A stretch of 57,031 bases of DNA, filler included, from Sphacelaria rigidula (taxonomy: Eukaryota): NCBI GenBank assembly GCA_964200075.2. It is 8 parts of 8 records of this genome, joined end to end, with 100 filler letters (N's around TTAATTAATTAA, not from the genome) between each part and the next. Parts side by side here need not be neighbours in the genome. Positions count along the whole stretch, not along the records: positions 42,850 to 49,890 come from CAXNAA020016805.1; 7 more parts are not named here. One strand, 5' to 3'. The notes under the pieces are model-generated. The model worked only from the letters and a program-made list of their open reading frames with translations. It had not been told where the DNA came from and did no database searches. This document shows, one piece after another, positions 9,657 to 52,800 of the stretch (the first letter of the stretch is position 1; every line of letters begins with the position of its first letter). The position numbers were made by a program, and so were the translations under genes.

Positions 9657-9913
9657 GAGAGATGCTACGGCAGGGGTGCACAAATATTTTCTGAGGTTAG
9701 AATTGTTAGGAGCCATTTATCTCATGCAAAACACGACCTATGAACATATGTGAAAGTACGCCAGGATTACTACTTCAATGTGCTGGGGATATTCCGAATG
9801 AATATGCAAACGGGGATGCCCTGACCCACATTTTGGTGCATCTAGAGTCGTTAGGAGCCCCTGAACTAGACATAATTTCGCGCAAAAAGTGCACCCCTAC
9901 CCTAGCATTGCTC
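9657..9913. mobile_element. Sola2-like MITE, copy 3 (intronic)
   Basis: Same TIRs and body; TSD TGAT. Confidence 0.92.
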
Positions 9914-10861: not shown

Positions 10862-13137
10862 CTGCAATGTGCGTGGTGCATGGTGCATTGATGCACACGA
10901 GGGACACGGTGAAGGGCGCAATAAGATACACATGTACGTACGTCACCCACCCTTCACTCCCATCATCATCTACCTAAAGTATAGAAGCAAGTCTGTGAGT
11001 GCTTCAATTATATCACAGGTGGCTCAGAGACTGCTACTGTAGGTTCAGGCGGGAGTTCTGTGGAGAATTATGTCGGGAGAATAGATGCGATCGAAGTTGA
11101 AGTGGGGTCGAAACGAGAGTGCACCGACATGTATGTGATCATTGAAGCACCTTGAGATGTATACTGCAACGAACCGGGAGGATATACAATGTGCTTGCTC
11201 ACTATGCATGAACACCTTCCATACACGTCCGCAACCCTATCAGAGCGTTGATCGTTTTAATATGCGCCTCAGTATATCCCTCTTGCCACCAGGGCGTATT
11301 TTACACCGTACAGCATACGTCCTTGCAGCAACAAGAGTTGGTGCCAGGCAACGGATAACGCCACCGTGCTGCAGTATCTCGAGGCCAAGAATGTACGTGG
11401 CTCCGGGGATTGGCGGTAGAACTGCGACCGACAGAGTACGCCCAGCGAGAGAAGGTCAACGCATACTATTTCACAGCGCGTTGGACATCTACTGTTGTAA
11501 CTATGTCAGATGTCAGATAAACGAGTCATTGAACGGCCAGAGGCCAGGTAAAGTAGCCGCAGGTGAATCTCGACCTCTACAGTAGCCACGAAGATACACC
11601 GGGACGACGATCATAGTCTGGCGCTCCACTGCAGTACAACGAACTGATCTACATGTAGGAGACGCAAAAAATTGGCATACGTGACGGTTGCAACATTTGC
11701 AAACACACCCTCAAGACACCCATCTCCTTTCCAGGGTCGAAACGTACAAGCGAGATACCACAGTCCGGTTTTGCACCCGTCATATCAGGCAACACTGTCT
11801 TATCGTACACCATCTTTCTTCTCGCCTCCTCCCCTCACTGAATCCACGAACTCTCCATCAGGGCAGACATCGTCGCCGGTTTTGTAGTGTCCAAACCGTC
11901 ACTTATCTCGCCGAAATCGGTGACAAGGGTGAGATAAGTTCCGGTTCGCAGCAAGTGAGCTCTTGTCTTCGCAGCACTGAGCCAGAGTGCATGCATGAAA
12001 GATATATGGAGGACTGTTTATGAAAAAAATCCATCACGTTGCTTCTTCACAATTGGGAACGGCGAACGAGGGTTATCTACATCAGCAGATGATAGCGTCT
12101 GAGGCCACGAGGCATCGATCCTTTGGTCGGGTTGTAAATTTATTTTACAGCGTGCCGGAACGATACCAGGTTATCCAACGCCTGCGCAATCCGAACATGA
12201 AGCGCTTTCGTCCGGAGGCGAAAGACTCGCGTTTCATCATCCTAAGAGTACCACAACCTCTGGGCTCGGATCTTCAACCTTCTGAAGGTCTCTAGTTTCC
12301 TCGGTGCCTTCGGGGGGTACCATTTCGCACGATTCCGAGCACTATTATTTTTGTTCGTTCCTAGAAAATAATTCGGTCACATATTTCGGGGTTCCCTGTT
12401 ACTACTCTTCTATTAAATAACTCCCAGCGGCCGCGACCTCCACGTACAGACGTGTTCACAATTCCAGGTATATCGAGAACATACCTTCTAAATTCAAGAG
12501 CGTATCCTGGCGTATCCTCGAAATTTAGCTTCAACATGAAAACAAGGTTCAACTCCAAAACAGTGCTTTCCATGACCTCGATTCAAGTAAGTCATGACAG
12601 ATATTTTTCACATGGAACAACGTTTTCGTGAAATTGAGAGTTGTTGAAGGTACGATTGGGAGTGAAAAGAGGTCAGTTAGTGAATAAGTCGTTTCAGTTC
12701 CGAAATGACCTCCACGAGGCCCAATATTCTCTCTGTAGTAGCTTGCCACTGAGGCCCTCGATACCCCTGAGTCAATCTGTTCGTGAAATTGAGAGTTCAG
12801 CGTTGATTGTGTGTTCGCCTCTCTTTCTCGTTTGCACCTTGGGTGTGTGGTCCTACTTATCAAACAGCCCACGCATGGCAACCATTGTAGGTTCCTTTCC
12901 GCACCATCATCGGAATGTGCACGACGCCGGATGACGGTCCCAAAACCAGGCCGTTATTATGGCGTGACAAAACTTTTCGTTGGGCTGTCCTCGGTTACGG
13001 TTCTCAGGAAATGATTGGACGGCAAGGATCTTGGTTTTCGCAGTGGTGTTACTGCGATCAATATTTTCGCTGAATGAGACTGTATATATATACCTTCTGA
13101 GTGAGAGTCAGCTTTTCAGCCGTTTGTCGAATTGGCC

Positions 13138-13405
13138 GAGTGATGCTACGGTAGGGGTACACAGACAGATATTTTCTTAGGTTAGAATCGTTAGGAGCCC
13201 TCCATCTTATCCAGAACACGACTTATAAAAATATGCGAGAGTACGCTAGGATTACTATTCCAACGTACTGGCAATATCCCGAATAAATCTGCAAAAAACG
13301 GGGATGCTCTGACCCATATTCTTGTGCGTCTAGAATCATTAGGAGCCACTGAATGAACCAGACAAAATTTCGCGAAAAAAGTGCACCCCTACCGTAGCAT
13401 TGCTC
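13138..13405. mobile_element. Sola2-like MITE, copy 4
   Basis: Same TIRs and body with small insertions; TSD GGCC. Confidence 0.92.
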
Positions 13406-14284
13406 GGCCTCAGTTTCATCTTAAACGTGTCTGCGTAATCCTGATAACCAACCCTGGCGATCACATGGTCAACATTCAACTTCCGAAGAGTTAGTCGTTC
13501 GATGTTTAGTGCCGAAACAAAACAAGAGCCGATTTGCGATTCTTTGAAATCGCGACGCGTTTCTATCCTACACTCGCGTCCACCATACCACTACTGTAAT
13601 CGAGAACACACTGCCGAAATGAAAAAAGTTATGTGCGACGAGTACACATGGCCTGTATGCTCAAAGTACAGCGGCGCAATAAAAGAATGTCTCGATATGG
13701 TTGACATCCACACTCATTTGCTTCCGTTATTGTCATTTCCAAAAAACGGATAATATCCCGTTATTGTTCACACATTCACCAACGGCTCTTCATCCACGTG
13801 TTTCGCGAAGTCATTCCAATCAACTTTGCTAGCGCTAGGGTAGGTGATTTTTTGAATCGGCACTACAGCCTTCTCTGTATGTTCATATAGATCGCTCTGC
13901 TTCGCATCACACTTCCAATTTTCCTATCCTTTCTCACATTGGAATGGAATGGAAAAGGGACAGAAGAGACAATGAAGAAAAGCAAGAACGGCATAAAAGC
14001 AGAAGAAGGGACGGAAACAAAGTATGGGCCATAGATTGACGATGACGTTCTTTCGCGCATCGTACCACGCAAATTCCAGACATTATCGTTCTAGTCCGAG
14101 TGACGTCCTTCCACGTGCGCAAGGGTGCGCAGGAAGGCGGAGCTGAGACCGGAGTCGTCGCTCGGCAAGTTCCCGCTAGGTTCTNNNNNNNNNNNNNNNN
14201 NNNNNNNNNNNNNNNNNNNNNNNNNNNNTTAATTAATTAANNNNNNNNNNNNNNNNNNNNNNNNNNNNNNNNNNNNNNNNNNNN

Positions 14285-18000: not shown

Positions 18001-19136
18001 GGGGGGGCACACACCAGCATCCCCGTATTTTTCTGCGTTGACCGAAAGTCATCGCGATGGGAAAAACAGGTGCCGTAATACGTAAACACACAAAACGTAT
18101 ATCTGCGCGATACCATCAACATCTCCCAGGCGCGCATCGTCCGGAGATTGTTTTCGCCTGCTAAGCGTTCGAAGCAGGGCGTGGCGGCACGAAATAGCCG
18201 TTCACGATCCAATCACGGTTGCCGCATACCCGTCACCCAATCTATACGCCGAGCTAACGTTATTTCACCACACCAAACGACACTGCACCGCACTCCACAA
18301 ACATTACCACGGTTGATATTATTTCCGTCACAGTGAGTCGATCTCTCGAGCCCGTGGTCACAGAGTGCAAGGGGCATATCATCCACACCAATAAATCAAA
18401 CAGCCGAGAGAGGAAAGCGAGAAACATCTTGACGAGAAAAAAACAGGCATCAACACTGCGAAAAATCCGTACACCAAAACAACAAAAAGGGAGTGCTATC
18501 CTGCAATAAAGACGGGGGACAGCCGCGACTCCTCCCGTCTGTAGTTCGAAGTGAAAGCATAAGGCTTCGGTGCGATAATAGCGTACGTACCCATATTTCG
18601 GCAGTATGTCTATAAAATATACATAATCAATAGCTACTATCGCATATCGATACATTTCCAAAGGTGACACACGAAAAAACAGGTGAGAACACACAACGAG
18701 AACAGCTCAAATGAGGAAACTGAGACTAAACACAACATAATTCCATGCACAAAAAGAGATATCAAAGACGACGACCACTCCTGAGGCAACAAAATCGGGC
18801 TATTCTCCGACCGTGCACTATATCCCCCCCCCCCCCCCCCAGCCCCCCCGCCTCCCCACCCGCTGGCAACTCGGCACAACCCCGGAATAAATAATTCAAC
18901 ATCGGAGCAATCCTCAAAGACCACACGAAACGACCACAAAATCACGGCGACAACAACAACAACAACAAAAACACCTAAAAGATTTTTTCGTGCGAAAAGA
19001 AGTACAACAAGAGTTTTTTTTTTCTCTTCTTGCTCGTGCGCACGCTGCTGAGCAGTGATTCAGCTACAGTATCTATGTTGCTCTCGCCCGCTTCCCTGTT
19101 TGCGCAATTCGTGCCATGTCAGGAAACACGTTCTTC

Positions 19137-19367
19137 CCAGTTACAGGTGGTGTGGCGGACGAAGGACGGTGGGCTATTCGACTATTACTATTCTTGCCCC
19201 CCCCCCCCCCCTTCCCCCCCCCAGACGCCAACGTCCGCCCCCCCCCCGCAAAACGACTATCACGACCCNNNNNNNNNNGGAACCACTGTTGTCCCGGTTA
19301 CCGGTGGTGGGGGGGACGAAGGACGGTGGGCTATTCGACTATTACTATTCTTGCCCCCCCCCCCCCT
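19137..19367. repeat. Direct duplication flanking a 10-N scaffold gap (19269-19278)
   Basis: GGACGAAGGACGGTGGGCTATTCGACTATTACTATTCTTG plus poly-C occurs on both sides of the gap. Confidence 0.85.
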
Positions 19368-19789
19368 TTCACGTCCGAAGCCGCAAACGACCGCCCTGCT
19401 TCGGAAACCTCGATACACTGACCTACCTTGCTCCCTACCTACACCGTTTCACTACCAAAACCGTCGAAGACATCCCCTCCTTAACGACGAATACACCACC
19501 CCAAAAACGCCCGACATCACCCGGGCGGAGTGTTTTCAAAACGGGCTCCCCGGGCGATACAGATATTCCCCCAGAACCGCGTAAATATGTAAGATATCTT
19601 CTCTGAACACCACGATATGATGTTGCAAAGCAAGCACTATATATAGGATGATACCATCCTAAGCTAGCAGCACCCAGCCACTGTACTTGACGAGGTAATA
19701 CAAACCTGCGCGTGTAAACAATCGCACCGGAGGTTACATAGGATCGCCTCGGGATGACACATATTTTCTTCATGAAACTCAGACGGTGA

Positions 19790-21087: not shown

Positions 21088-21326
21088 GGGGGGGTACTCA
21101 TGATCATGCATGCCATAGTCATACGACCATTGATCTCGCATCCCTACAAAGCCGGGACGGAGCACGCCGGGTTCTCGCCGGACCAGGCTCGTACTCAATC
21201 ACCAAGCACCGTGGTGTGTTCGGCGAGTCGCATGAAGGGTGAGCTGCATCCTGCTAAGATTGTTCGGCCCGAAGTCTACTGATCATCTTGCATTTGCATG
21301 ACAGCCTCCAATGAGTTGCTTCATTA
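21088..21326 (-). mobile_element. Poly(C)-ended SINE-like element, 3' half, cut by the contig end
   Basis: Reverse complement aligns to 49590-49841. Confidence 0.9.
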
Positions 21327-22509: not shown

Positions 22510-25500
22510 AATGATGGAGACAAGGAGAGTGGGTAGTGATTTGAAAAAAAAACTGCGAGGAGGATCACGGGACGTGTGTGGACCCGCCACGGAAAATCGC
22601 AAGAATACATAAATAACCGAGCAAAAAAGCAAGCGCGAGCTTGATATAGTGGGAATCCAAGAGTCATGGGAGAGAGAAGGGGCGGATATGATCCAAAGTT
22701 GGAGAGGACGCACGAACAGGGAAGAGAGGAAGAGGCAGAAAAGCAGTGATAGGAGGGTGGAGGAATCGAATTCCTGGTCAAGGAATATCTGTGTGTCATA
22801 ATAGAAATGATCAAGACCAAACTCGACCAGGACACATGGATTAGGTTACCAGAAGAGAGGGGAGCAAAGCATTTTTTCTAAGAAAATATCCCGATGGCCC
22901 CAGGGTTGTAGAGTACGATTAGCTATACACAGGGAGAGTTTGAAGAGATAACAGCAGATGTACAGAAGTAAAAAAGGCACGAAAAGGTAGTGTCGGTGGG
23001 TATTTTTCATGCAGGAAATGGAAAAGCAAGCAAGCAAACGACAACATTGGCAATATGGGACAATGAGTAAGGATACGAATGATGAGCAGATGTTGCACAT
23101 CCTCGAACACCACGAGATAAAGTCGTTGAACAATAGTCGAGGAGCGAGATCTGGAACGGGCTAGACAAGGAAAACAGCTTCATTTTTTACCATCATTCAG
23201 TGATGGAAAAAAAAGAGTAAAAACCAAAAGTACAAGTATTCCACACCCTGGACAATACAATATGTTTTCAATATATGTTAGTCGATCATATTGGAAATTT
23301 GCGATATATTGCCGGTGTAATATATAGTCGTACCCTTGGACAGCACACGTATTGCGCGCCCAATATATATATATATTCATGTCATGGGACTGCATACATA
23401 TTGCTCGCCCAATATATATATATATATATTGGTACTGTGGGGTTGAACATTTTTTCTCCCATCAAAATATATTGCAGTTGCGTAGGCGACAACATATTGC
23501 ACGACCAATTTATGTTAGGATCGCATTGATGAGAAAATTTTGACCGGTCAGTATATATTGGGGTAGCGTGGGTGCCAATGTATTGGCCGGTCAATATGTA
23601 TATTGGATATTATAAGTATGCTGTACGCTTTAAACAATATCCAGACGCGATGGATGCCGGACCCCGTGCAGATTGGGAAAAGCTTCAACGAGAGCTGCAG
23701 AAATTCGTGTGCATTACTACAGAGAGTCGTCGAATTCGTTTGACACACACACATATATATATTGGTCAGAAAATATGGTGATAGAAGAGGCGACCCGGTA
23801 TATATGCCTCCTGATACCTATCTGGCCACCGGTGCGGGGCCGCCCATCCCCTTCCCAGCATGTAGTTAGTGTAGTTAGTATATCTTGGCTAAACATCACG
23901 ATGATAGAAAACGCGGGTCGATATGCGCCTTCTCGTACCACTGTGGTCACCGGAGCTGTGTTGCTTATACCCTGGACAATACAATATGTTCCAATATGAT
24001 ACCAATACCTTGTATTGGAACCAGCGCAAATATCGCTGTTTCAATATATATTGTGTTGAGATGTCTTCGGAGACATTGAAGCAACAACATATATTGCTCG
24101 TGTCCTGATCATGAAGTAATGTATGACAATATATATTGGACATGCATTTGCTCCGGGAATACAACATTCAATACATATTGTGCATGCCGGCCGTGTATGT
24201 ATTGAAGTGTCAGTATATATTGAGTCGAAGCGATGCGTAGCACATTGTTTCAATAATATATTTTGAACTCAAACCATGCAAAAGTATTGTTTTTCCAATA
24301 TACATTGCGCACGCTCATCGCATAGCTTTTCTACAGACAATATATATTGAACACGTTTGTGGAGGAATATATTTAGCGTTTTCGGCATGTGGAGATACAT
24401 CTTTGAGAGGCGCCCGCGAACATAGAACTGCCCACTATACTAATTCCAACACAGTTTCCGATCTATTTGTCGAAAATCTAAATATATTGCTGCACCAATA
24501 TGTATGTGTTGTGACCGTCGGTTCCCTCGTGTATTGTCCGCCCAATATATATATTGAACGCATTGACGCACGACATATTCGGGCGGTAATATATATCGGC
24601 GCTTCGGGTGTTGAGTATATTGAACCATCAACATATATTGACCTCGTGTGGTGGCCAGTATATTACTCGACAAATATATATTGGTGCCTTCTCGCACCAA
24701 CATATTGCTCGGCCGATATATATATTGAGATGGCGCGTGTCGTCATATATTGTTCGGCCGACGTATGCTGCATGTCGCGAGCCTTGACATATTGATGGCA
24801 CAATATAAATTGACCCTCTCTCGTGCCATCATTTTGCTCGCCCAATATATATTGACCACCCGACGAGTCGAATATTGAGCGGGCAATATATAGTACGTAT
24901 TGTATTGTTCAGGGTGTGAAGTATTCGCAGATGATGCAGGAGCTACGTATCACTGCCTTATATGGATAGACAGTCAACCGACGAGAGGTATTCAAAATAG
25001 GCGGGGTGTACAAATAAATGGAAAACAAATAAACTGGAAAAAAAAATAGCATCAAGAACAAGGGTTCCAAAACTCATGGCCATGAATGTAGTGAATGTTT
25101 CTAGTCGTTGCACCGCGTACGTACAGCTACGGACGAAATAGAAACAGATAGTTCAGGAGCGAGGGTTGCAAAAGGATGGGACCAACTGGTCAAGCTCACA
25201 AACAGCCGCCCAGAAAAAGTTGAGGGTGGGGCTTTTCATTGAGGATAAACCGGAAACTTAAAATCTCAGTATCCAGCCAGTGTTCTTCGAAATATGGCTG
25301 CATGCCTTCACCGGTCGCTATTAGTAACTACAACACACCATACAAATTTTGATTCTAGTAACAAAACGTTCGAGATCCTACATAAAAACAAATCTGGGGA
25401 AATTGGTTGATCAATTATGATGACCTGAATTCTCCATAAATTTTTTTCCGCCTAGGACTCCAAATGTTAGGCTATCGAGGTCCTAACTCATACGGCCTGT

Positions 25501-27140
25501 AGTAGTTGTCAATGGCTACCAGTAGGTGAAGAAATGCAATCATATTTGAAGAACTGGTGTGGATACGAAGATTTCAACTTTCCCGGTTGTGATCGTCAAT
25601 AAGAGCTCCATCCTCAATTGTTCTGATCGGCTGTTGACAGGGAGTACAATGTTATAGAACACTTTGATAGTATGTAACAGAGCAGTGAAGTGGTAGGATA
25701 ATGAAAAAAAGGGGTTAGCTGAGTAAGGAAGATACACACGCGAAAAGGTACATCGAGTAAGAGTACGGGAATATGGGAGGAGCATGCCATGACTACAAAA
25801 ACATGAATTATATCCTTATATAAAGAAATGCAGTTAACGAGACAAATTAAGACTATAATGGCGTGATGGAGCAGATGTAGGTAGAGATGAGAGAATTATT
25901 GGCACACAGACAAGAGAGGTGGCCAAGAGAATAGTCGCACTAGGAGTAAAGAACGATAAAAAGGCTAGCGTTTCAGAGGGGAAGAGAGGATTAATTGCAG
26001 AAGAGCCAGGAACTAGGAACACCAACAACTAACCAGAGCTCCGACGCAGAACTCGAGAAAGAATCAACGCGTGGATAGATGCGAAGGTACAGGCATCACA
26101 ATAAAAACTATTATTTCAAAAGAACGACAGCGGGAGAGTTCACTAGGGAGAAATGAAGAAGTGAATAGCAATACTTTGGAATGGAAAGGCAGCAGGGGGA
26201 AACGAATGATGAATATATGAAGTGCGTGGGAGAGAGAATGAGTATCGTGAAGGTTATGTCATTGTCGAATTGTATCTGGGAAAATGTGTACACACCCAGG
26301 GTGTCCGGAGAAAAGTAGGAGTAGAGAGTTTCAAGGAAAGAGACCGGGTTGACCCAAGGAGACACAGAAGGGATAGAATGCTGCTAAGCACCGTAGTCAA
26401 AACATGTATGAGGTTTTGAACGGTAGGATGGGAACGATGCAGAAGAAGCAAGATAATTCAGCGAAATATGTACAGTTTTTAGGCCAAACCTTAGCTACGT
26501 ATACCACGTGTACTCATCCAGTGAGATGATACAGGGTTAAAAAGACGCGGGGCTAAGACCACACTGTTCCCTTCTGTGACACGGTACGGAGAGATGGGCT
26601 ATGGGGGAAAATGCGGGAGACTGTTATCAGGGGAAATATGTCGAAACCTGCTGAAGACATCAGAATGTGCAAGAAGTGCTATGATGATCCTAAATGGGGA
26701 AATATTATAGAGTGCGGATGTCGTACAAGGAGTTGCACAAAGATGTACGTTATCAATCACCTTCTTTGAGCTATCCGTTACTGATATGATAATACGAAGT
26801 ATGGGTAGAAGAAGCATATTGCGGAGTCGTGGTCGGGGAATATATACGGTGTAGGGATTTGTGTCTGCGCTTGATATCGTGGGGACATCAGATAAATTAG
26901 AAGGATTGCAGAAAAAATCGGGGAACTTACTGGAATACGAAGGAATGGAAAGTTACAGCGAATGTGAAAAAATGCGCGTTACTTTTACGTGATGGGGTCA
27001 ACGATAATCCAGTATAATCAAGGTGTTTGTGGGGAGAAGATGAGTCACCGATTGTAGACCATACATATACCTTGGCGTGTAGATATCAAAATGTGTTCTT
27101 GAGATGCACACATAAAAAAGCTGGTAGAAACGGCTAAACC
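22510..27140 (+). mobile_element. Decayed APE+RT non-LTR retrotransposon (same family as 43300-46459), interrupted by insertions
   Basis: APE motifs ELDIVGIQESW (~22640), EGGGIEFLVKEYL, and an SDH-like FADDAGATYHCLIW (~24925); RT motifs LLSTVVKT (~26380) and QGVAQRCTLS (~26725); nucleotide match of 26010-26090 to 43310-43385; many stops and frameshifts. Confidence 0.88.
23242..24918. mobile_element. 1677-bp non-autonomous DNA transposon with 8-bp TSD and many internal CAATATATATTG-like palindromes
   Basis: TIRs CACACCCTGGACAATACAATA / TATTGTATTGTTCAGGGTGTG (20 of 21 match); exact TSD AAGTATTC at 23234-23241 and 24919-24926; LINE frame resumes after removal. Confidence 0.92.
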
Positions 27141-29842: not shown

Positions 29843-30627
29843 CACTCCGGACAGAACAACCAATATAAATATATATATATTAATCGATCATAATGGAATT
29901 TCGGATAATTTCTTGGAAACATAGTATATATATATATATATATATATTGGTACCCTGGGACTGCACACGTATTGCCCGCCCAGTTCATGTTGGTGTCGTG
30001 TGGGTGACAACGTATTGCCCGCCCAATATATATATATATATACTGGTACCACATCAACATACTTCGAGGATGCACATATATTGTCCCATCAACATACTTC
30101 GACGTATATTGGTGTTGTGTGAGCGACTACATTTTGCACGACCAAAATATATTGGGGTCGTGTGGGTGATAACATATTGGCCGGTCAATATACATTGCGG
30201 CCGTATGGGTGATATCATGTTGCCCGGCCAGTATATATATCGGGGTAGCATGTACGACAACGTATCACCCACCCAATGCACATTTGGCGGACGCATCGAT
30301 ACCAAGTATATGTTCCGCCAACTGTATTATTCAAAAACTATACTCTGCCGCAACCTGAAGTCATCCCGTCCAACGAATTTCCCATTCGACGTACTTGTGG
30401 TTAATTCTTCGTTGGCGTGAAGATTGTTATACGGGCATCATTTCGAATAATTCCAAGAAAAAATGAAAAAAGTGAGAGTCGTTGAGTCGCTCCTTCGAAA
30501 TATCCCTGTTCCCCGGTTGAAGCATCCCTTCGAAACGCGGGTCGATATGCGTCTTTTGGTATCCCTTTGGTCACCGGTGCTGTGTTGCTTATACCTTGGA
30601 CAATCCAACATGTTCCAATACGATACC
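29843..30627. mobile_element. Partial diverged copy of the 23242-24918 element
   Basis: 29850-30250 is similar to 23250-23600; 30532-30627 is similar to 23908-24003. Confidence 0.85.
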
Positions 30628-32101
30628 GATCTTTACGATGAGGGAGTGGATGTAGTCGAAAAAAGTAGAGAATGAAACGAGAATAAAACGAGCTGTTGAT
30701 ACGACACGGTCAAAGGTGAATCTGTCACGAGTAAAAAGTAAGCAATCTGCCAGCACCTCTCCAACATCCGCGTACGGGGGGGGGGGGGGTTCATGTGTAC
30801 TCTAAATTGCAGGTCTTCGAATGATGCACGAACGTGGCTTTGAGCGAGTAAATATTCGCTAACGATGTGGCCTGCTCAACCGATAATAAACATTGTTTCG
30901 TAACGACAAAACATTGGAGAAAGTATCGAGGCACGCAAGATGAAGGTATGCTGAGTACTATCGAAGGAAATGGGGCACCATCCCCTTTTTACCTCGAGAT
31001 CGTGATCGCTACGGTCCGTATCAAGTGAAGCACCTCATCACTCACGGGTATCGCGCGCTAAACTCACATGACCACCCGGATACGAGAGAAACGTATTGGA
31101 GCTTACCGCGCGTGGTAGAATCTGCTGTTGAGTGTTATATCCACCATGGACACCGCGTGCAGTGAGGCCAAAGATACCAACAGCTGGCAGTACTGCAGAC
31201 TCGAAGAGGAGCCGAAGGTCACAATTGCGAAAACCTGTGTCAACGTTCAACGCAGTAGCGAAAACAGTAGACTAGCAGCTGTCATTGAATCATTTATACA
31301 ACCAGGGCAACGTGGTATACTCGACACTCAGCTGCACGGTCGGTACAGCGATAGTTTCGAAAATAAAATAATAGCGGTACATCTTTTCCATCCGTAGGTA
31401 CGGTGTAGGCGTAAACTACACAGCAGTCTCCGTGGCACAACCTTCAGTACAGCGCTCCCCGGAAACGTGAAAGGTGAACGGTGAACGCCAACCCTACCGT
31501 ACTGGCGAGGTACCGGAGTGAAATCCCCTCACCTGCGAACACCACGAAAGCAAAAAAACTGGACTGAAAAGGCACCGGAGTCGAAGGGCTGCTAAAGTGA
31601 AGGACAGCAGCAGCAACTCTGATCCACCCAGTGCCAGCAAATAGCTGCGTCCAGAAGGCACCTGCGTCGGCAAACAGTGCACACGCATCCGACTCCTTGT
31701 GAGCTTGTGGGAAACAAGGCCCAGCAGAGCAATGGCGACATACTCAAGGATAGTCATAATAATCAAATAGAACCCTTCGACGACGAGCGTGTTCTCGAAC
31801 GATCGGCAACAAGCTTCTTCATTCGGGTACAAACATTATAATCCCATGTACCACCGGAATAACTGATGCGCCAATCGCCAGTTGGGGAAGCTTGAGGATC
31901 CTGGTGCCGATAGATACGGTCGTTCCGAGCATGATCTAGTTTCCGTCCTTGTGACCGACGCGAGTAGCAAAACAAATCGACGAGTGTCGACGGTATGCGG
32001 GAGTGCTGATCCAATTCCCGACGACGAAATGTAAGGCAGATATACCGTGGGAAGAATGGGTTTATACCTCAAAACTACGGACTCGCCGTGACAAAAGTGT
32101 C

Positions 32102-42360: not shown

Positions 42361-42749
42361 GAGATCAGCCTAATCCGGCGAGGACCCGGTGTGCTCCGTA
42401 CCAGCTGTGTAGGGGCGGACTCTCGATGGGGTTGGTGTCGGTTGGCGATGACGCTATGGAACACGCCACTTACTGCGTAAGCTAGACAACCAGGTTACCG
42501 ATTTTTTTTCCGCGCTTGCGTTTCTTTTGGAGTAACGATGATAATAGTCGAGCTAGATCATGTTGTGCGGTATGGGAGAACCTCAAATCCGCACAATGGG
42601 GGTGATCGTGCAACGCAGTTTTAAAATGGTGAAGCACCCATGAGGCAGCGTGTATGCCGTGGCTTTCTCTGGAAGTGGCGATACCAGAAATGAAGCAACT
42701 CATCGGAGGCTGTCATCCAAATGCAAGATAATCAGGACGCTTAGGACCG
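42361..42749 (+). mobile_element. SINE-like element: a 3'-region fragment (42361-42420) followed by a new copy from its head (42424), cut by the contig end
   Basis: 42424-42749 aligns to 49332-49655; preceded by a C-run at 42347-42360. Confidence 0.88.
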
Positions 42750-43681
42750 NNNNNNNNNNNNNNNNNNNNNNNNNNNNNNNNNNNNNNNNNNNNTTAATTA
42801 ATTAANNNNNNNNNNNNNNNNNNNNNNNNNNNNNNNNNNNNNNNNNNNNTTGAGCGTACCTTTGATGAAGTGTTCTTTCTCGGTCGTCAGTGCAGTGTGT
42901 GGAACACCCCTGCCAGCTATGCCCACGCTACCACTCATACGCTTCTGAAGTGCACCGACGGAGATGTCAAAGGTCGTAGCTGCAGCACAGAAGCTAGGAC
43001 GACCGCTGTGTACCGCTTATACGGCCCGTGCTGCACGTTCTGCTCTCTGCATGCTTAGCAGCCGATCGACCAAAAAGGTGATTTTGGAGGATGACACATA
43101 CCCGCTTACTCGCAGTGCTGTAAGACTACGTAATCGGATGCTTGAGACACATAAAATAGCCCAAACAAAGCGCCGTGCTCTTGTGCACACGCAGAAAAAA
43201 ACAGAACGGAAAACGTTTAATATTTTGCGGAGATATGAACGATTAAAACAACTTGTATCTTAATTGGCTCTGTATCTTCATTGGTACATTTCCTCTAGAG
43301 CACTACCGTGAAATAGGAACACCACAAACTAACGAGAAGCTCAACACGGAATTCGAGAAAGAGATCAACGCGTGGGCAGAGGCAAGTGCAGAGGCGTCAA
43401 AACGGGCGGATAGTGGCTCGAAAGAAGTACAGAGAGTTTACTAGAGATGAAGTGAAGGAGTGTGTGGCTAAACTCAAGAGCAGAAGGGCAGCTGGGGCAA
43501 ACAAAATAGTGAATCAATTTCTGATGAGTACGGGGGAGAGGGAATGACGACCATGCCGATTATGCTGTATAACTGGATCGGGGAAAACCGAGTACTCACA
43601 CAAGAGGTGGAGAGAAGGAGTAGTCGTCAACTTTTTCAAAACTAGAGAGAAGGCTGACACAGGGACCTATAGAGGGATAAT

Positions 43682-44389
43682 TAGGGTTGGGGACTGAACC
43701 AGTATCTACTGACAGTATTCCTGTACTGGCAGTTTTCCTGTACTGCGTCAGAGGCTGCCAGTACAGCCAGTACATACCCATCTTACGTACGTCCTATATT
43801 ATGCCTCCTACACCACATGGAAACCCACCGAAACTGCGCCGCATGAGAGGCAGGAGAGGAGAGAGGTTGAGAACAGGGCACATACACTAGAGGGAGACCA
43901 CAAAATCGATGGACTAATATGTCACTGGGAGCAGCAGCCCGCCCGCTTCAGACCCGAGCCCGGGGCCTCAGATCCCTGAACCCAACGCGGCCTCCGGCGA
44001 ATCACGATTGTTGAAGTTTTTCTCTGGGATATGCTAACAACTATTTGAAGAAGAAACGTTTTCACATCCGGGCAGGCATCATCGAGGTGGCCCAAAATTA
44101 CCCAAAAAGTATTTTCTAGTGAAGCCAAATCGCGTAAAAATACGCATCCGGCGGGGCCCCCTAACCGGCCGGGGGGGGCGTACTCATTTGTTGCTTGCCT
44201 TAGTCATTTGGCCATTGACCGCGCATCCCTTCCGAGACGGAGAACCGGCCGGGGGGGGCGGTGGTCGCGGCGCAGCCGCACCACGCGGCTTCACCGCGAC
44301 ACCAATGTGACTGATAGGGCCCAGTAAACTGGCTGCGGAGAGCAGCCAGTTTACCTGGTACTGGCGCGTAGCGCCAGTCCCCAACTCTA
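43682..44389. mobile_element. ~710-bp non-autonomous DNA transposon (hAT-like) nested in the LINE RT
   Basis: TIRs TAGGGTTGGGGACTG / CAGTCCCCAACTCTA (14 of 15 match); flanks GGGATAAT and CGGATAAC share GGATAA; splits the YRGI|TLLS motif. Confidence 0.82.
44163..44260 (-). mobile_element. 5'-truncated LINE 3' end with an 18-bp target-site duplication
   Basis: AACCGGCCGGGGGGGGCG at 44163-44180 and 44243-44260; the insert encodes SPSRKGCAVNGQMTKASNK*. Confidence 0.85.
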
Positions 44390-45719
44390 CGGATAACACT
44401 ACTGAGCACCGTAGGGAGAACATTCTGTAAGATTCTGAACGAGAGAGTGAGAGCAATACAAGGGTTAGAGGGAAAAATCAGCGAGGGGCAAGCAGGGTTT
44501 AGACCAAATCGTACTTGCGTAGACCATGTAAACACACTAGGTGAGATTATTCAAAGTAGGAAAGACGCCAGGCAGACTGTGTCTTTTGGGACGTACAAAA
44601 GGCTTATAACACAGCATAAACAAATGGACTGTGGAAAACGTTGTGGGAAACTGGGATCAGAGGAAAGATATAGAAAATGATGAAGATCACAGAATGTGCC
44701 ACAGGTTCTCTGATCCTAGACGGGGAAATATCGAAATATCTTGACATTTCACAAGGATTTGCACAAGGATGTACGTCATCACCAACTGAATTCAAAGTTT
44801 TCATAATGACCCGATAACAGTATGGAAGCAGCAAAGGAAGGAGTCAAGGTCGGTGAAGATATGGTATCAGGATTGATGTTCGCGGATGCTTTCGTGGGGG
44901 TATCAGAAACACCAGAAGGATTTGAGAAGCAAACAGAGCAGGCGCTAGAATACACTAGGAAGTGGAGAGTGACAGCGAACCTTGAAAAATGCGCAGTACT
45001 TGCATGTAAGGAAGATAGGGAAAACCTGGCAGAGTTTCAATGGGAGTCGGGAGAAAAGGAACAGCGGATCTTCGACCAGTAAACAAACCTTGGCGTGGCG
45101 ATCTCGAAAACCTGTTATTGGGATGCTCACACGAATGAAGTAGTAGAAGCGGGTAAGGCACAGATAGGCAGGATAGACGTGATCATCGGAGACTCGCACC
45201 TAGATACTAAGATTAAGAGGTGTACGCTGACAAACGTGATTGTACCAAAGCTGGAATATGCAGGAGAAGTATGGGAGGGGAGCGTGAAGTTGGTGAAGAA
45301 GTTGGAAACAGTACAGATGACAGCAGCTGATGAAATACTTGGATGCTCAAAAACGACGAGTAATACGGCATTGAGAGCAGGATTGGGAATGTACCCACTA
45401 AAAACAAAAACAATATAGCGTAAAGAACATGCAGGGAAAGAGATTGCCAGCTATAGTTGATAAGGCTGTATGGACGAACATGACGAAAGGGCAGGCTAGA
45501 ATAAGGTGGGATAGAGAAGTCGAGAAAGTATGGAGGGAGATGGGAGGAAGTCAAGACGAAATACTGTCCATAGGTGAACGCGCGGGGTACAAGACAAATG
45601 TAAGAGATATGATAGAAATAAGGGGACAAGGATCGCTCAGACGCAAAGTAGACGAGGAAGAACACCTGGAGATTCACGGGGGGCTGAGAGAGGGGATAGG
45701 GATAAAAAATATCTGCATG

Positions 45720-45969
45720 GACTAATGCCGAGATAGCCCCCCCCACGAAAAGTGCACCGGAGACCGTCCGACAAACCGGCTGCGATCCCACTATTGGGCT
45801 CGTTTGCAGAAATTCCACCCACATGAGAGGCGTGTAGCAGTTCAAAATCAGCAATAACGCCCAAATGAGTCGCGTCGTGCAGCACAATACCAGCTCTCAG
45901 GGTATTTATGGTCATCGCCTCCGTGCACGTTTTTGGCCGGTTCGAGGGCGGGCTATCTCGGCAGCAGTC
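45720..45969. mobile_element. 250-bp MITE nested in the LINE
   Basis: TIRs GACTAATGCCGAGATAGCCC / GGGCTATCTCGGCAGCAGTC; flanked by CATG on both sides; removal restores the LINE sequence YLHGPVD. Confidence 0.87.
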
Positions 45970-46487
45970 CATGGCCCAGTGGACGCGGCGAAATAACTGA
46001 AACTGCGACTTCGGGTTGGAGACCTGGACCTGCCAGAAAGAAGAAATAGGTAAACCAGTAGTCGAGAGGAGGAGGAAGTAGATGCACAGAATTGGCGAAG
46101 CAGTAGAGAGCAGAAGTCATACAGTGGCAGAATATAAACTGTACAAGGAGCAGCGGGATGCGCTAGAGGCGGAAACGCGGGACTTGAACTAAGGTGGCAT
46201 GAACACGTTTGATGCGCTGACAGTAGCAAGAAAACGATGGCTATACTGGGAGATAGATGGTAGCCACAGACGGCGGAATAGGACGGGGATAATGGGTGTA
46301 AGGAGGTTTGGGTAATATATGGAAGAAACATAATGAGCACCTAAATGTTTGAGGTTTATCTGTTAAGAGTAGTAACGATGCTTCATCTCGAAAGGAGTGC
46401 GTGGTCCATGGTCGAACGACCGAGGTAAGCAACAAATTAGTGTCACTTCTCCCCCCCCACTACCCCCGTGATACTGGCCTCACACAG

Positions 46488-46706
46488 ACGAGCATGCGAG
46501 TGTTTCCGCCGGAACGAGGCCTGATGATATGCAATCGATCGACCGGGTGGTACCGCGTCGGTCCTTACTTCCTAGCGAAGTCCATAAGCGACATCGGGCT
46601 GTACACGGCGGCTCCTATTTTGTTCGCGACGCTGGGGTAATGGTGTGTGGGACTGCGAGCGGACGCGGGCCACTTCGTCTTCTTCTTCCTGCTCTTCATG
46701 AGCCAG
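46488..46706 (+). pseudogene. ABCG/White-family transporter membrane-domain exon with an in-frame stop
   Basis: CACAG| acceptor; TSMRVFPPERGLMICNRSTGWYRVGPYFLAKSISDIGLYTAAPILFATLG*WCVGLRADAGHFVFFFLLFMSQ; TAA at 46638-46640 where the Y of the YW..GL motif is expected; donor CAG|GCGAGA. Confidence 0.85.
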
Positions 46707-46895
46707 GCGAGACATTCAACCGTGTGCTGACAACCCGCGGTAGTAGTACGGGAAAGGGGGGGGGGGACGAGAGAGGGGCGGCACTGTGTTGTAATATTTA
46801 GCATGTTTTATTATTTGAGAAGAAAGCATGGAGGACGAGTAGAGTGAATGACATTTTTGGCGTTTCTACAATGCACACATGCACTTGTGGTGGTC

Positions 46896-46966
46896 GCCCC
46901 GGTGGCTCAAGCGGTAATGTCTAAACCTTCCGACGGTTGGGACATGGATTCGAATCTCGGTGAGGC
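46896..46966 (+). pseudogene. Degenerate tRNA-like sequence (tRNA pseudogene or SINE head)
   Basis: A-box-like TGGCTCAAGCGG, B-box-like ATTCGAATC, anticodon-like stem AACC-TTCCGAC-GGTT; D and T stems pair poorly. Confidence 0.55.
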
Positions 46967-47664
46967 CACACGATCTGTTTTTTTCTTCTCACATTATGCC
47001 TAAAGGTTGAGAGTGACCATTTCCTCAATGCACAGCATTTGACTCAATGGTCGACGAGGGCAAGGGACCGCCGAACCGAAACTTCGCGATAAAAAGGGAA
47101 GGCAAGTACCGCAGGAGAAAGGTGAAGTAAGGAAAGGGGAAAAAGCTCCTGTGTTGATCTTTTTCCTCAGCGACCCCGGCTGATGCGCCCACATGTACCG
47201 AAAGGTGTAGACAGGCCGTCAGAATATATGGATGACAACACGCACAACACACACAGATGGTCTGCTCACGAGTAGGTAGGTACGCCTTGGTGATAAATAT
47301 CATTTTTGCCAGGGTCGGAGTACCTTCTGTCCTGAAGGTTTACGATCAGTATATTAGTGAATACAGTACAGAACTACACAATGGTCCCCGATCTGAAAAA
47401 TATGGGGAGGGTAGGATGTAATATTCAGATCTTCACCGACAGCTTGTTGAGCATGGTGTTCTAAGTAGCAGATTCAGGGCCTTGCGTGCCGGGTAGGTCA
47501 TCATCGGATGGTGCTCTGGGCCTATCGTTCTGTGGGCTGCTGATATCAGTTTGGCCGAGGACTTGGTGGAAGTTACGAAGCGGTTACCTTGTATCGTCGT
47601 TGTCCATTTGCTTTTTCTTCATGGATCTGGCGGCCAGGCGGGCGGCAGGCGGTGGCGGCAGCGA

Positions 47665-47752
47665 AGGGGGGCGTACTCATTTGTTGCTTGCCTTCGTCGT
47701 ATGACCATTGACCACGCACGCCTCTCGAGACGGAGCACCCGCCGGGGGGGAG
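47665..47752 (-). mobile_element. 5'-truncated LINE 3' end between G-runs
   Basis: Near-identical to 44171-44250; encodes APSREACVVNGHTTKASNK*. Confidence 0.85.
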
Positions 47753-48003
47753 GGTTGGTTCCCTAGAATATGTTTTAGTCACTTCCACGCTCTGTTGAGA
47801 CTGTCGCAGCCGTAGGGTACGTGCTGCCATTGCTCTTGTTTGTGCCTCGTGTATGTGTCTTTCCTGTGTGTGTTTTGTGTACTTGCCTAGCGATGCATCT
47901 CGGGCTACAATCTTTTCTTCAATGCACTGCTTTTGATGTTTGAAGAAGTCACAACCTAGTCATTACCACCCACCGTGCCATTACACGACATGCTGCTGAG
48001 CAG

Positions 48004-48109
48004 GTGATCGTGGGCCAGAGCATTGGGTTGCTGATCAGCACGGCCATCCCGGACATCTTCACCGCGCAGTCGCTCTCGTTCGTTTTGATCCTTACTCTCA
48101 TGGTCTTCG
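48004..48109 (+). CDS. Next exon of the ABCG/White-family transporter (probable pseudogene)
   Basis: GAGCAG| acceptor and G|GTGAGT donor; VIVGQSIGLLISTAIPDIFTAQSLSFVLILTLMVFG matches the ABC2 membrane motif QS.GLLIS......A.........M.FGG; in phase with 46706. Confidence 0.85.
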
Positions 48110-49331
48110 GTGAGTTGAGCTGGGATGAGACGGTGACAAGACAGAATACGCGTTTTCTTATCTCGTATTCTTCTGTTTTTTTGTTTTCCATTCCCGTCTC
48201 ATCTTGCCTACATCTTTCCCTTTCCCTATACGTTTTTGTCGTCTTATTTTGGTATTTTCATCCATTTTTGCTGTTTTTGTTCTTTTCTACCGGGTCCGCT
48301 CGTTTTGTGTTTTTCTTCGACATCAGTGATCACATGAGAAGGACGCAACCTTCACGGTTTTTTGACCCCCCCCCCCTCCCCCAATTTATTTGATGATTCC
48401 GCAAGCTATGTTGTGGTTTTGCTCTTGTTTCGTGTGCACATTCGATGCTAGGTGTGCGGAACCGCTGCCATGTCATCACGGCGCAGTCTCCACCCCCCGC
48501 GCTCGTTCTGGGATGTGTCTTCCTTCTTTTTTGTCGTTCGTTCCTCTATTTTATTTCCTTTTGCATGCATTTTTCACCCGCCACGCATTTGGCGTGTTTG
48601 CGAAATTCTACGTTATTTTCAGGCTTATTTATTTTCATTCCTCTTGTCCACTAGTTAGGGCTACACAGCTAAATATGTCTGTGGTGATTGAAATAGCAGC
48701 TATGTTCTCTCTCGGAGTCCTCACAGCCGTTTCTCCTGGCTCGGGCAGCGTCCGAGTATCTACACACACACATATATATATATATATATATGTGTGTATG
48801 CGTTTATCTGGGCAGGAGGGTTGTACAACTGCGATATGGTGGAAAATAACAGTAGCATGCGTCGTCTCTCAACCCACTGACCACGTTTCTTCCCTGTTCG
48901 AAGGGTTTGGGGGCCTGTCTCCCGGAGTATGTCTCTACCTCCCCCTCGTGTTTTCAATTGTCCGTCTATGGCCCACCCAAGAGGGTTCGATATCCAAGGC
49001 GTTGAAATGGCCATCTCGCAATCAAAGGTGGTCAAAATGAACATTTCGTGGGCAAGCGGTTGTCAGTCAATGAGATCTTACTCTTCTTTTCTTAAAGTGG
49101 TCATTGTTCAGCGAGTTAGCTGGTCCACAGTGTGCCGATACGGACGTTTGCAATTCGATTTTGTCAATATGCCCATGCACGGGAGGTTGGAGATCAAAAG
49201 ATCTGACATTCCCGCGGACAAAGAATGATGCATTTTTTGACTAATCACTTTTCACCGCCTTTGCTGCTGCTGTTGTTCCTTGTGCTGTTACTTTTCAGCA
49301 TCAGCGTTTTTCATCTTCTCCCCCCCTCCCC

Positions 49332-49841
49332 CGATGGGGTTGGCGTCGGTTGGCGATGACGCTATAAAACACGCCACTCACTGCGTAAGCAAGGCAACCA
49401 GGTTACCGATTTGTTTTCCGCGCTTGCGTTTTGTTTTGCGGTAACCATGACGATGGTCGAGCTAGATCATGTTGTGCGGCGTAGGAGAACCTCAACTCAG
49501 CACAATGGAGATGATCGTACTACGTAGTGTTGAAATAGTGAGACACCCATGAGGCAGCGCGTAAGGCGTGGCTGTCTCTGGAGGGGCGATACCAGAAACT
49601 GAAGCAGCTTATTGTAGGCCGTCATCCAAATGTAAGATACTCAGTAGGCCTCGGGCCAAGGAATCTTCGCAGGATGCAGATCACCCTTCATGCGACTCGC
49701 CGAACGCATCACGGCGCTTCGCGCTTGGTGATTGAGTGCGAGACTGGTCCGCCGAAAACCCGGCGTGCTCCGTCCCGGCTGATGCGAGATCAATAGTCTT
49801 ATGGCTATGGCATGCATTATCATGAGTAACCCCCCCCCCCC
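49332..49841 (+). mobile_element. Full-length ~500-bp poly(C)-ended SINE-like element
   Basis: Head GATGGGGTTGGCGTCGGTTGGCGATGACGC; tail ...GGCATGCATTATCATGAGTAA followed by C12; C-rich flanks; a second truncated copy starts at ~49849. Confidence 0.9.
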
Positions 49842-52800
49842 TCCTCCCGGTGAGCACCCATGAGGCAGTGTAAAAGCTGTGGCTGTCCCTNNNNNNNNNN
49901 NNNNNNNNNNNNNNNNNNNNNNNNNNNNNNNNNNTTAATTAATTAANNNNNNNNNNNNNNNNNNNNNNNNNNNNNNNNNNNNNNNNNNNNGGTACAGCAC
50001 TATTGAGTTGAGACAGTTGAGGGTTGTACTACTACTGTACTGTTGCACTGTCTGTAGACAGTTTTGTATACTTTCGGTAGGAAGTGTTCTGTACTGTACC
50101 ACTCAGACTGTCTGTAGTACTGTACTACTGTTGTCTGTAGTACAAGTGTGCACATGCCTATGTGTGTCCGTTTGCATACTTTGAAAAATTACAGTAGTTC
50201 TCGATAAAGGTTCACCACACGCAGTAATCCTAGCTGCGTGAAGGCGAGAGGGGGAACAGAGACACCTGTCGACCTGGCTGAAGATGACGTGGATGGCCTG
50301 AAGTGGGCCACCCATGCAGCCACTACGGGGATCTCGACAAAATGGCCACCCAACGGTGGTGTAACTGCGCGAGCTGACGCAAGCTTCACGTTGGGTTGCC
50401 ATTTCTTCAAGTCCTCATCGCAGCTGCTTGAGCGGCCGACTCCCGCCCTTTCGCATCATCATAAGCCAGGTCGACTGGTGTCTCGGCTCCCCCGTTCGCT
50501 TCCAAGTATTCCTCGTACAGATAGGTATATGCCATCACCAGTGCTGTCGCGGGCGTTCACGACATCCGGCACCGCCTCACTTATGATATTGTCCTACGGC
50601 TGTGTTCTGTAACATTGGTCGTTATCGGGCAGGGTGTCTAGTTCCGTTTCATAGCCCTGAGTTTGGCATCAAAGCTTTAAGCTTTGGGGTGTCTAGCAAC
50701 TCGTTTTTTTTTTTCAAATTGAAAATTAATCCTGAGTTGCTGCGCATGTCTCTTTTCAGGGTTCAGTTTTCGGGGTTTACCTAGGGGAATTCGTCATATC
50801 CTAGCCTTGAATCCCAACTTTCTTGATAATCCCTGAGTTTTCCCTCATCCCTGAGTTCTGATTTTTGTTTCCGAAATGTTCGATAGCATCTTTCATGTCC
50901 CCCACCTCTTTCCACAGACTCGACGATACCTCTCCTACACACGATCATCTGAGAAAGTTCTGCTTGCTCCACGTACCAAAGACACATAGCTGCTGGCGCC
51001 TTCCAATTTTGCAGTGACCGACCCGTCGCCGTGAAATGATCAGCTGAAGAAAAGGCGTGGACTCGGTTAGCATATACCGGACTTTTGTGCTCGGCTGTCA
51101 GCACAAGCTAGTAAAAATCTACACATTGGTGTGAAGCGGCAGTACACATTAGGCAGTACAACACGAGTCCTACGCGATCGCTTTCCGGATCCCAGCAGTG
51201 GAACACGAGGTCCAAATCTGGTACAGTTCCAGATCTCCCGTCCTTACTGTGGATACTACATCCATAGCCTTATTTCGCGCTTGGTCGGGGTAATCGGGTC
51301 GGAATTCGTTGAGAACGCAGCTATGAGGGTACCCCACATGCGTGCGGTATGCGTGTGTAGATCTGGCAATATGCATGCAGCATGCATGCTAGCCAGTGTA
51401 ATCGTGGCCAAACATACCGACATGGGAATCATGTGCTACACCTCCCGTGTGACGAGTAACCACATAAGGGGCCCTTGACTTTATTCCACAACAGCCCAAA
51501 CGCCGCAGTTGAAAGTCCTGAGCACGAAAAGGCCCCTCATACGAAACTTGCGGCGCGCAGACTATTCTTGGGGTGAGGATTGCGAGGATTGCGAGGATGA
51601 CACTTCCATCATCATCTCTCCAAGAAATGAAAGTTCCAAAGGTTTGGAGATGAGTGGTCCTCGCCACCGATCTGCGATCGCGATGGGAAGGGCACCAGAA
51701 CGGGTCTGTCGGAAAAAACTGTTCCGAGTTGAGGCCTTGCAATCACGGAGTTCACAATATCTTACGAAACTGAAGCAGCAAGACTCTCGTAGGTGCAGGG
51801 GTGCACATTTTGTTTGAGAACTGGTTATCGCCAATGTTGCCCTGTACTGCGATTGCGATGGAACCAGGCAACAACACGGGTCCGTCAGATATACTTTTGT
51901 TCGAAGACGAGGCCTCGCCGTTGCTTATGGTCAGCAAACAGTCAGTTGTCGTATCTAAGGAGTATTACTTCGCTACCTCGTACACAAAAAGTTGCATTCG
52001 TTCAGCATTTGGTTCACGTTTGAGCTTAAAGAGGAGAGAGACAGACTCGTCTGAAGTAGTACAAGTTAAAACACCGTATTTTCGATTGATGGCGATATTT
52101 TTAGGATTTTTGGCTACCACGACTCTTGTCACGGTTTCTGGTTGTCATCAAACTTCGGGAATTGAGAGACATGAGTACCCGACACAATTTTGGACAAAAC
52201 AAATGCTCTCGTCAATTTTGAACGAGCAACAACACTCGTATGACCAATTTTCGGACGAGCAAAAAAATTCCCATCACCAATGGTGAACGAGATACGGGCT
52301 CACGCATGGTTGGGGGTCCTACGAGTGTACATCCCCCGGTCCTCGCTCTTTGATACTTTCGTTGGACTGAAGCGATCCGGTTCGATATGATTGACGATTC
52401 AATTGTTAATTTTGTTTATACTCTAGAGATTCAGGTCGCTTCTTATAGACTGAAAAAATTCATCAACAAAAGTTCAGGCGGTCTACTTTTCGTTCTTCAG
52501 AGAAGTCAGTTTTCAAAGCCCAACCTGTTAGTCCATGAAAACATTCGGGGATTTGGTACACCCAATGCCATCATCTAGCCTGCGTGCAGACGGTGGTGGT
52601 GATCATCATTTGTATTTTGCGCTTGAACACATAATCTCGTCCAGGTGCAGGATAGATGGAATGGCAACATAACACACATGCACACAAACACACACATAGT
52701 AGCTGCTGGTATATTAGGCATCAAAACGACAGGCGTATCAACCCCTTACTCAAGCCGACCGCCGCTTGTTACAGTAGTAGTGTCGCAAGCGGTGCAGTGG

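Follow-up and report, generated by a model that had tools for sequence, protein, structure and literature searches.

A decayed LINE and a short non-coding passenger with a common 3' end next to C homopolymers in the brown alga Sphacelaria rigidula

The closest described counterpart of the elements reported here comes from the brown alga Ectocarpus sp. 7, in which the RTE-X long interspersed nuclear elements (LINEs) RTEX-1_Ec32 and RTEX-2_Ec32 occur with a partner, RTEX-N1_Ec32 (Dinatale et al., Genome Biol 2025; PMC12477816). According to the main text of that article, RTEX-N1_Ec32 is ~600 bp long, numbers over 6000 copies and has a 3' end conserved with RTEX-1 and RTEX-2; the RTE-X LINEs and this non-autonomous partner are the most abundant repeat family in Ectocarpus, and the origin of the partner's 5' region was unknown to the authors. 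Here we analyze a stretch of 57,031 nucleotides from Sphacelaria rigidula (assembly GCA_964200075.2), hereafter the window, that holds a LINE, several shorter copies of it, and copies of a separate non-coding element that we call the passenger. On balance we favor the reading that the window records a dead LINE with an apurinic/apyrimidinic (AP) endonuclease and a reverse transcriptase (RT), likely of the RTE-X lineage, together with a ~505-bp passenger, and that both probably inserted by target-primed reverse transcription (TPRT) at (C)n.(G)n tracts.

By published description, the likeness to RTEX-1/RTEX-2 and RTEX-N1_Ec32 consists of a brown-algal LINE, an abundant short non-coding partner and a common 3' end. 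An earlier, sequence-only reading of the window had proposed such a pair and had named an existing annotation as the finding that would speak against its novelty; the Ectocarpus elements are such an annotation (PMC12477816, as described in its main text). The pair is therefore not new as such, and what is new is a case in a second brown alga. A preference for (C)n targets is possibly undescribed so far: the main text of PMC12477816 is silent on C-runs, tails and targets, and its Fig. 1C ("terminal motifs") and supplements may well show (C)n. Our search of the literature on C-tailed or (C)n-targeting LINEs, and on brown algae together with RTE-X, gave nothing relevant beyond that article. In the matching passages of the other papers, poly-C occurs only within the 3' untranslated regions (UTRs) of vertebrate L1 (PMC5381506) or as a run in the terminal inverted repeat (TIR) of a DNA transposon (PMC9942856), and RTEX is merely listed as a clade (PMC5753468).

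The window consists of eight pieces of ~7.04 kb, separated by spacers of N/TTAATTAATTAA, and one piece has an internal N10 gap. Copies were mapped by self-BLAST and by tblastn with P0002, an intact relative of the LINE of 1360 amino acids (aa); the best protein matches of the LINE include Ectocarpus sp. CCAP 1310/34. Two extra LINE loci, L001 (1-2184) and L002 (1-1628), lie on public contigs filed under bacterial metagenome-assembled genome (MAG) records and were found by scanning a prokaryotic genome collection with a 20-nt LINE-end motif that contained no C-run. L002 has an uninterrupted 505-aa open stretch with 88% identity to P0002. The presence of a eukaryotic LINE on contigs of bacterial MAG bins suggests algal contamination of the bins that hold L001 and L002.

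Every element listed in the sequence-only reading was recovered by self-BLAST and by tblastn with P0002. The LINE (43295-46458) and its four 5'-truncated stubs are real, and tblastn added a second, older copy. Their positions are as follows.

43295-43679, + strand: LINE fragment, part 1, matching P0002 aa 622-749 (tblastn)
44393-45707, + strand: LINE fragment, part 2, matching P0002 aa 749-1198 and containing the RT core, with frameshifts and stops (tblastn; weak Pfam RVT_1; six-frame reading)
45946-46450, + strand: LINE fragment, part 3, matching P0002 aa 1194-1360 (tblastn)
46451-46458, + strand: C8 run closing the long LINE copy; a host ABC-transporter exon lies 26 nt further downstream
27-52, + strand: stub A, covering the final 26 nt of the LINE (BLAST)
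422-545, - strand: stub B, covering the final ~124 nt of the LINE, matching P0002 aa 1324-1360 with 78% identity (BLAST, tblastn)
44180-44242, - strand: stub C, covering the final 63 nt of the LINE, within a miniature inverted-repeat transposable element (MITE) (BLAST, tblastn)
47672-47743, - strand: stub D, covering the final 72 nt of the LINE (BLAST, tblastn)
22514-27109, + strand: second LINE copy, older and heavily decayed, matching P0002 aa 154-998 including the endonuclease region (tblastn)

The long copy spans 43295-46450, equivalent to residues 622-1360 of P0002, and the C8 run (46451-46458) comes directly after it. Its 5'-truncation point lies near 43295, with no C-run in the upstream flank. 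This copy is decayed, with many stops and frameshifts in six-frame reading and with a mutated stop codon and a degenerate terminal motif in part 3, and it is broken by two nested inserts (43682-44389 and ~45708-45945). The second copy has 29-59% identity to P0002 and is broken by other sequence, and its 3' end was not found by tblastn. The five LINE-type copies formed by the long copy and the stubs have a single 3' end in common, and the LINE sequence that they retain varies from 26 nt to ~2.2 kb. The peptide motif ...GCxVNGxxTKASNK, which had been assigned to all LINE ends, is present at four of these five; stub A, with its 26 nt, keeps only ...TKANNK.

The intact relatives P0002 and P0004 both contain an AP-type endonuclease (Pfam Exo_endo_phos, E = 3e-12 and 8e-15, respectively) and an RT (RVT_1, E = 9.8e-31 and 2e-32), and beyond these domains they have an unassigned N-terminal region of ~150 aa and a C-terminal region of ~370 aa with a Cys/His motif. 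The LINE fragments of the window give weak RVT_1 matches (E = 0.0048 and 0.051). The copy at 43295 lacks the endonuclease because of its 5' truncation; the endonuclease region (aa 154-328) is matched by the second copy at 22514-23031 (tblastn). The closest solved structure to the LINE protein is human L1 ORF2p (8uw3_A, E = 6.6e-21). With RT, AP endonuclease and the hallmarks of TPRT present, namely 3' ends at one fixed point, 5' truncation to differing extents and one exact 17-bp target-site duplication (TSD), the window LINE is an APE-type retrotransposon without long terminal repeats (non-LTR). The C-terminal peptide of the Ectocarpus protein P0005 is identical to that of the LINE, and a second family (P0009 and P0014) has a related but shorter C-terminal peptide. 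The LINE most likely belongs to the RTE-X lineage catalogued in Ectocarpus, a label taken from the published Ectocarpus classification and the peptide common with P0005.

The second component of the pair is the passenger, whose length is ~497-510 bp and which is represented in the window by five main copies and two weaker fragments.

49333-49829, + strand: passenger, full-length (BLAST, alignment)
49850-49890, + strand: passenger, second and 5'-truncated copy, cut by the piece end (BLAST E = 1.7e-4; alignment A2)
42424-42749, + strand: passenger, 5' start shared with the other full-length copies, 3' part cut off by the piece end (BLAST)
42361-42423, preceding the 42424 copy: possible 63-nt piece of the passenger 3' region (E = 6e-4), after C9 (42352-42360)
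32107-32596, - strand: passenger, older full-length copy, 70% identical to that at 49333, with C5 after its 3' end; 5' flank without a C-run
21095-21326, - strand: passenger, 3' half, cut; followed by C7 and a second mini-copy of GAGTAC plus C-rich sequence
6970-7042, - strand: passenger, 3' end, cut; followed by C14TC6

C7TC5 (49320-49332) lies just before the full-length copy at 49333; after it comes C12 (49830-49841), in a tract that reads C12TCCTCCC, and the 49850 copy begins directly behind this tract. In alignment, the 5' starts of three full-length copies lie within ~3 nt of one another, and the passenger therefore has a defined 5' end.

The LINE and the passenger are homologous over their last ~75 nt (alignments A1 and A3). 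Stub C matches the 21088 passenger copy with 74.4% identity over 86 nt (self-BLAST, E = 1.6e-7), which confirms the homologous 3' end of ~80 nt proposed earlier, and the passenger matches the outside LINE loci L001 and L002 with 75-77% identity (E = 2e-8 and 7e-8; spans of 61-86 nt overall). Intact relatives end in ...GCVVNGQMTKASNK, coinciding with the element end, and the stop codon of the LINE open reading frame (ORF) lies 5-6 nt short of that end, so that the shared 75 nt overlap the last ~22-25 LINE codons. The placement of the shared part inside the LINE coding sequence thus stands, and the common ~75 nt support an autonomous/non-autonomous pair. No sequence downstream of the C-runs is common to the copies, and the elements therefore end there.

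We asked what the passenger is, given that the sequence-only reading had described it as a short interspersed nuclear element (SINE). In the strict sense this name is not borne out, as no RNA polymerase III head was found: Rfam returned no matches, those to tRNA, 5S and 7SL RNA included, at E up to 10 for 49300-49890 and none at gathering score for the whole window, and ARAGORN found no tRNA genes. To judge by its sequence, the passenger is a LINE-dependent, SINE-like element that is short, non-coding and carries a LINE-borrowed 3' part. It could instead be an internally deleted derivative of the LINE, not a SINE, with a 5' part taken from the LINE 5' UTR or promoter and transcribed by RNA polymerase II. 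The empty tRNA, 5S, 7SL and ARAGORN searches and the defined 5' start would fit such an origin, and the main text of the Ectocarpus article likewise reports no source for the partner's 5' region (PMC12477816). The passenger body outside the last ~75 nt, however, has no similarity by BLAST or tblastn to the LINE coding sequence compared, that is, the window LINE (P0002 aa 154-1360), L001 and L002, and the window is without a LINE 5' UTR. We regard a deleted-LINE origin as a real possibility, though less likely than not.

The feature of most interest is the sequence that follows the pair. Among nine 3' ends in the window, seven are immediately followed by a C-run of at least 6 nt, one by C5 and one, that of stub B, by an interrupted C-rich 20-mer (402-421). 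The LINE copies of L001 and L002 both terminate in ...GAGTAC(G), behind which lie C10TC9 and C13, respectively. Overall, a C-run of at least 5 nt lies within 10 nt of ...AGTA(C/A)(G) at 10 of 11 3' ends, including the two on outside contigs, and the eleventh adjoins an interrupted C-rich tract; two of the 11 are independent in that the scan pattern itself held no C-run. The claim that the 3' ends adjoin C-runs is thus upheld. Run length varies between copies from 5 to 15.

C-runs also occur upstream of the elements, an observation that the sequence-only reading had not made. At 6 of the 11 assessable 5' junctions in the window, a C-run of at least 7 nt lies within 25 nt upstream, compared with 0.6-1.05% of random positions (the upper value being the rate for C-runs of at least 6 nt within 25 nt upstream of random window positions; binomial P ~6e-10 for the 11 window junctions). 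Adding the 5'-truncated copy on L001, whose 5' junction is negative, brings the total to 6 of 12. Stubs A and D have C-runs adjoining both ends: stub A lies between C-rich sequence at 1-26 and C15 at 53-67, and stub D, read on the + strand, between G6 at 47666-47671 and G7 at 47744-47750. The clearest instance is stub C with its TSD.

44163-44179, - strand: TSD of stub C, 3'-side copy, 17 bp, an exact match to 44243-44259; G8 on the + strand is C8 in element sense
44243-44259, - strand: TSD of stub C, 5'-side copy, 17 bp

In element sense, the TSD reads G, C8 and then 8 unique bases, with equal run lengths on both sides. Because C8 lies inside an exact duplication, it was already in the target. 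The C-run is thus at least partly target and not tail only. The sequence-only reading had left the choice between poly(C) tails and poly(C/G) targets open; the 17-bp TSD with C8 and the 6 of 12 positive 5' junctions favor a target component.

The main rival to integration at C tracts is a pure tail, in which the C-run is part of the element (template-encoded, as are the simple-repeat tails of other LINEs, or in the RNA), targets are essentially random, and 5' C-runs arise from landing in older tails. All 11 3' ends adjoin a C-run or C-rich tract, compared with 6 of the 12 5' junctions, as a tail would lead one to expect; L001 carries C10TC9 after its 3' end but no run before its 5' junction; and the 49850 copy sits directly behind the tail of another copy. 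On the other hand, the C8 found upstream of stub C belongs to the MITE and does not follow an older copy, and it is inside the exact 17-bp duplication, while the rate of 6 in 11 at window 5' junctions is ~50 times background. Landing in older tails is, moreover, itself a preference for C-runs, so that a pure-tail model merges into integration at (C)n.(G)n tracts. We consider it unlikely in its pure form. Unlikely as well, and much more so, is non-templated addition, in which RT, or a different polymerase, would extend the nicked bottom strand with G residues before engaging the RNA and so make the sense-strand C-run de novo; it could accommodate the wide variation in C-run length, from 5 to 15, but it leaves the C-runs upstream of 5' junctions and the C8-bearing TSD unexplained. 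The weakest and least likely alternative is that the C-runs are due to chance or artefact, arising from assembly or sequencing or from a C-homopolymer-rich genome: the window as a whole abounds in C/G homopolymers and one duplicated C-run locus flanks the N10 gap, but such an origin is scarcely compatible with 11 of 11 3' ends at a C-run or C-rich tract across five of the eight pieces and two unrelated public contigs, with nearly all C-runs starting at the same element base against a background of ~1%.

We therefore return to TPRT at (C)n.(G)n tracts as the preferred reading. Under this mechanism, the endonuclease would nick the bottom strand at the edge of a G-run, and the nicked G-run would pair with the C residues that end a read-through transcript, these residues being transcribed from the run that lies downstream of the source copy. 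On visual inspection the element shows hardly any 3' UTR and lacks AATAAA, so transcripts would have to run into the downstream C-run. The cDNA would start exactly at ...GAGTAC(G), with RT recognizing the ~75-nt end that the passenger copies; because it carries the last ~75 nt of the LINE, the passenger would be mobilized in trans. A top-strand cut downstream would duplicate the C-run within the TSD and leave runs on both sides, as at stub C, and a cut elsewhere would leave the 3' run alone. The "poly(C) tail" would, on this reading, be a mix of target and template, like L1 poly(A) and its T-rich target. We put forward more tentatively, and with the balance tilted against it, a stronger version in which (i) (C)n.(G)n tracts are the specific integration sites of this LINE lineage and of the passenger, with C-runs in place of A-rich tails; (ii) they would be the first C-homopolymer LINE/SINE system; and (iii) their activity creates and re-uses the long C/G runs in which this genome is unusually rich (13 of at least 10 nt in 56 kb).

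Several observations weigh against one part or another of the preferred reading. Half of the 5' junctions (6 of 12) are without a C-run, namely those of the long LINE, stub B, the passenger copies at 42424 and 32596, the second LINE copy (border uncertain) and L001, and a target-only model therefore needs variable second-strand cleavage. Two of the six positive junctions belong to matches of weak homology (E = 1.7e-4 and 6e-4), and setting both aside leaves 4 of 10. The count of clear TSDs is one, and the host MITE of stub C has no second copy within the window, so there is no empty site for stub C. RNAalifold on eight sequences gave no support for a conserved hairpin in the shared 3' end (-4.2 kcal/mol, one compensatory pair). 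Among the C/G runs of at least 9 nt in the window, 5 of 17 are at element ends and 12 of 17 are not beside a recognizable element; C-runs therefore exist independently, and a nearby run may not always be caused by an element. As to the lineage, the published length of RTEX-N1_Ec32 is ~600 bp compared with ~505 bp for the passenger in the window (PMC12477816, by its main text), and the RTE-X label, with the basis given above, is provisional.

The window as a whole has more C/G than A/T homopolymers: 13 versus 4 at a length of at least 10 and 9 versus 1 at a length of at least 12, where the expectation for independent and identically distributed bases is 0.06 or less. The 250 nt upstream of the other C-runs of at least 9 nt have a BLAST match elsewhere in the window for only some of them, among which is the duplication at the N10 gap. 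Two C-runs, at 12312-12320 (- strand) and 30776-30789 (- strand), are preceded by LINE-terminal-like sequence (...AAATGGTAC and ...TTTAGAGTAC...) and may be very short or decayed stubs. A direct duplication, 19122-19240 and 19279-19396, lies astride the N10 gap; its copies are 84-90% identical and each ends in a long C-run, and the probable cause is overlap in the assembly, not the presence of two elements.

The surroundings of the long LINE copy contain two nested inserts and part of a host gene.

43682-44389: hAT-like MITE, 708 bp, splitting the LINE RT; 15-nt TIRs, 93% complementary
45708-45945, borders uncertain: second nested insert, ~240 bp, TIR-bearing; arms at 45719-45743 and 45946-45970, 88% complementary
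46485-46706 and 48001-48111: ABC-2/ABCG-type transporter, two exons, with 74-86% identity to orthologues of Ectocarpus, Scytosiphon and a gene set of Undaria

The 708-bp MITE is flanked by imperfect 8-bp duplicates (6 of 8 identical), and by tblastn the LINE resumes behind it at the same residue (749). The order of events was insertion of the MITE into the LINE RT first and of stub C into the MITE later. The terminal repeat of the ~240-bp insert contains a C8 run. The transporter exons have 78-86% identity to the Ectocarpus protein, and a 50-aa exon query finds brown-algal orthologues at 80-92% identity, which points to a brown-algal host that is apparently distinct from the sequenced Ectocarpus strain; an in-frame TAA at ~46638-46640 means that the locus may be a pseudogene or a paralogue. 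A tRNA-like stretch noticed by eye at 46890-46975 was rejected, as Rfam at E up to 10 and ARAGORN were both empty.

Other repeats in the window are of different kinds. A family of ~100-bp repeats, 86-90% identical and located mostly in the second piece (7336-7433, 8009-8097, 9653-9750 and 13135-13235), has inverted partial copies near 7572-7599, 8240-8265 and 13381-13408, and could represent a MITE or one end of some larger element. At 24241-24795 and 29884-30420, long ORFs in several frames are rich in repeated Ile/Tyr-type motifs, which suggests a tandem or satellite-like repeat common to two pieces. An 870-aa ORF at 3026-5635 has no homologue at E up to 1e-5, and a Pfam scan of 141 window ORFs gave only weak matches to ABC2_membrane, B-box and DUF2189.

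For annotation, the pair is ordinary, and its place is alongside the RTE-X LINEs with their non-autonomous partner. If (C)n.(G)n is indeed required, the LINE would be a clean natural case of an AP-endonuclease LINE with a homopolymer specificity other than T/A, and would be informative on how the choice of nick site and the pairing of primer and template set the 3' ends of LINEs. Such a requirement would also explain why long C/G homopolymers exceed A/T ones in the genome, and it would predict where new insertions land, for example near exons as at 46459.

Four known systems place these features in context. RTE-clade LINEs, such as Bov-B with its SINE Bov-tA, have a long single ORF with AP endonuclease and RT and a very short 3' UTR, SINEs borrow their 3' end, and their tails are A/T-rich short repeats. 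The window LINE differs in adjoining C homopolymers and in a protein (1360 aa) with extra N- and C-terminal regions that include the Cys/His motif. In the stringent-type pair UnaL2/UnaSINE1 of the eel, the RT of the LINE recognizes the 3' region and the terminal repeat base-pairs with the target at the nick, whereas here the repeat is a mononucleotide C-run and a conserved 3' hairpin is unsupported. Human L1 is alike in combining an AP endonuclease with RT, and the analogy would extend to pairing between a homopolymer that ends the RNA and its complement at the nick, which in L1 are poly(A) and a T-run. The homopolymers are nevertheless C/G here and A/T in L1, and a specific shared 75-nt end contrasts with the loose RNA recognition of L1. 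L1 poly(A) is made by polyadenylation, and we know of no C-equivalent of that process. Finally, the LINEs in the R1 and Tx1 clades that insert into microsatellites (Waldo, Mino, Kibi and Koshi) have a 3' end and a target made of the same simple repeat, the targets being di- to tetranucleotide repeats; the Sphacelaria LINE is of a different clade, and its repeat is a C homopolymer.

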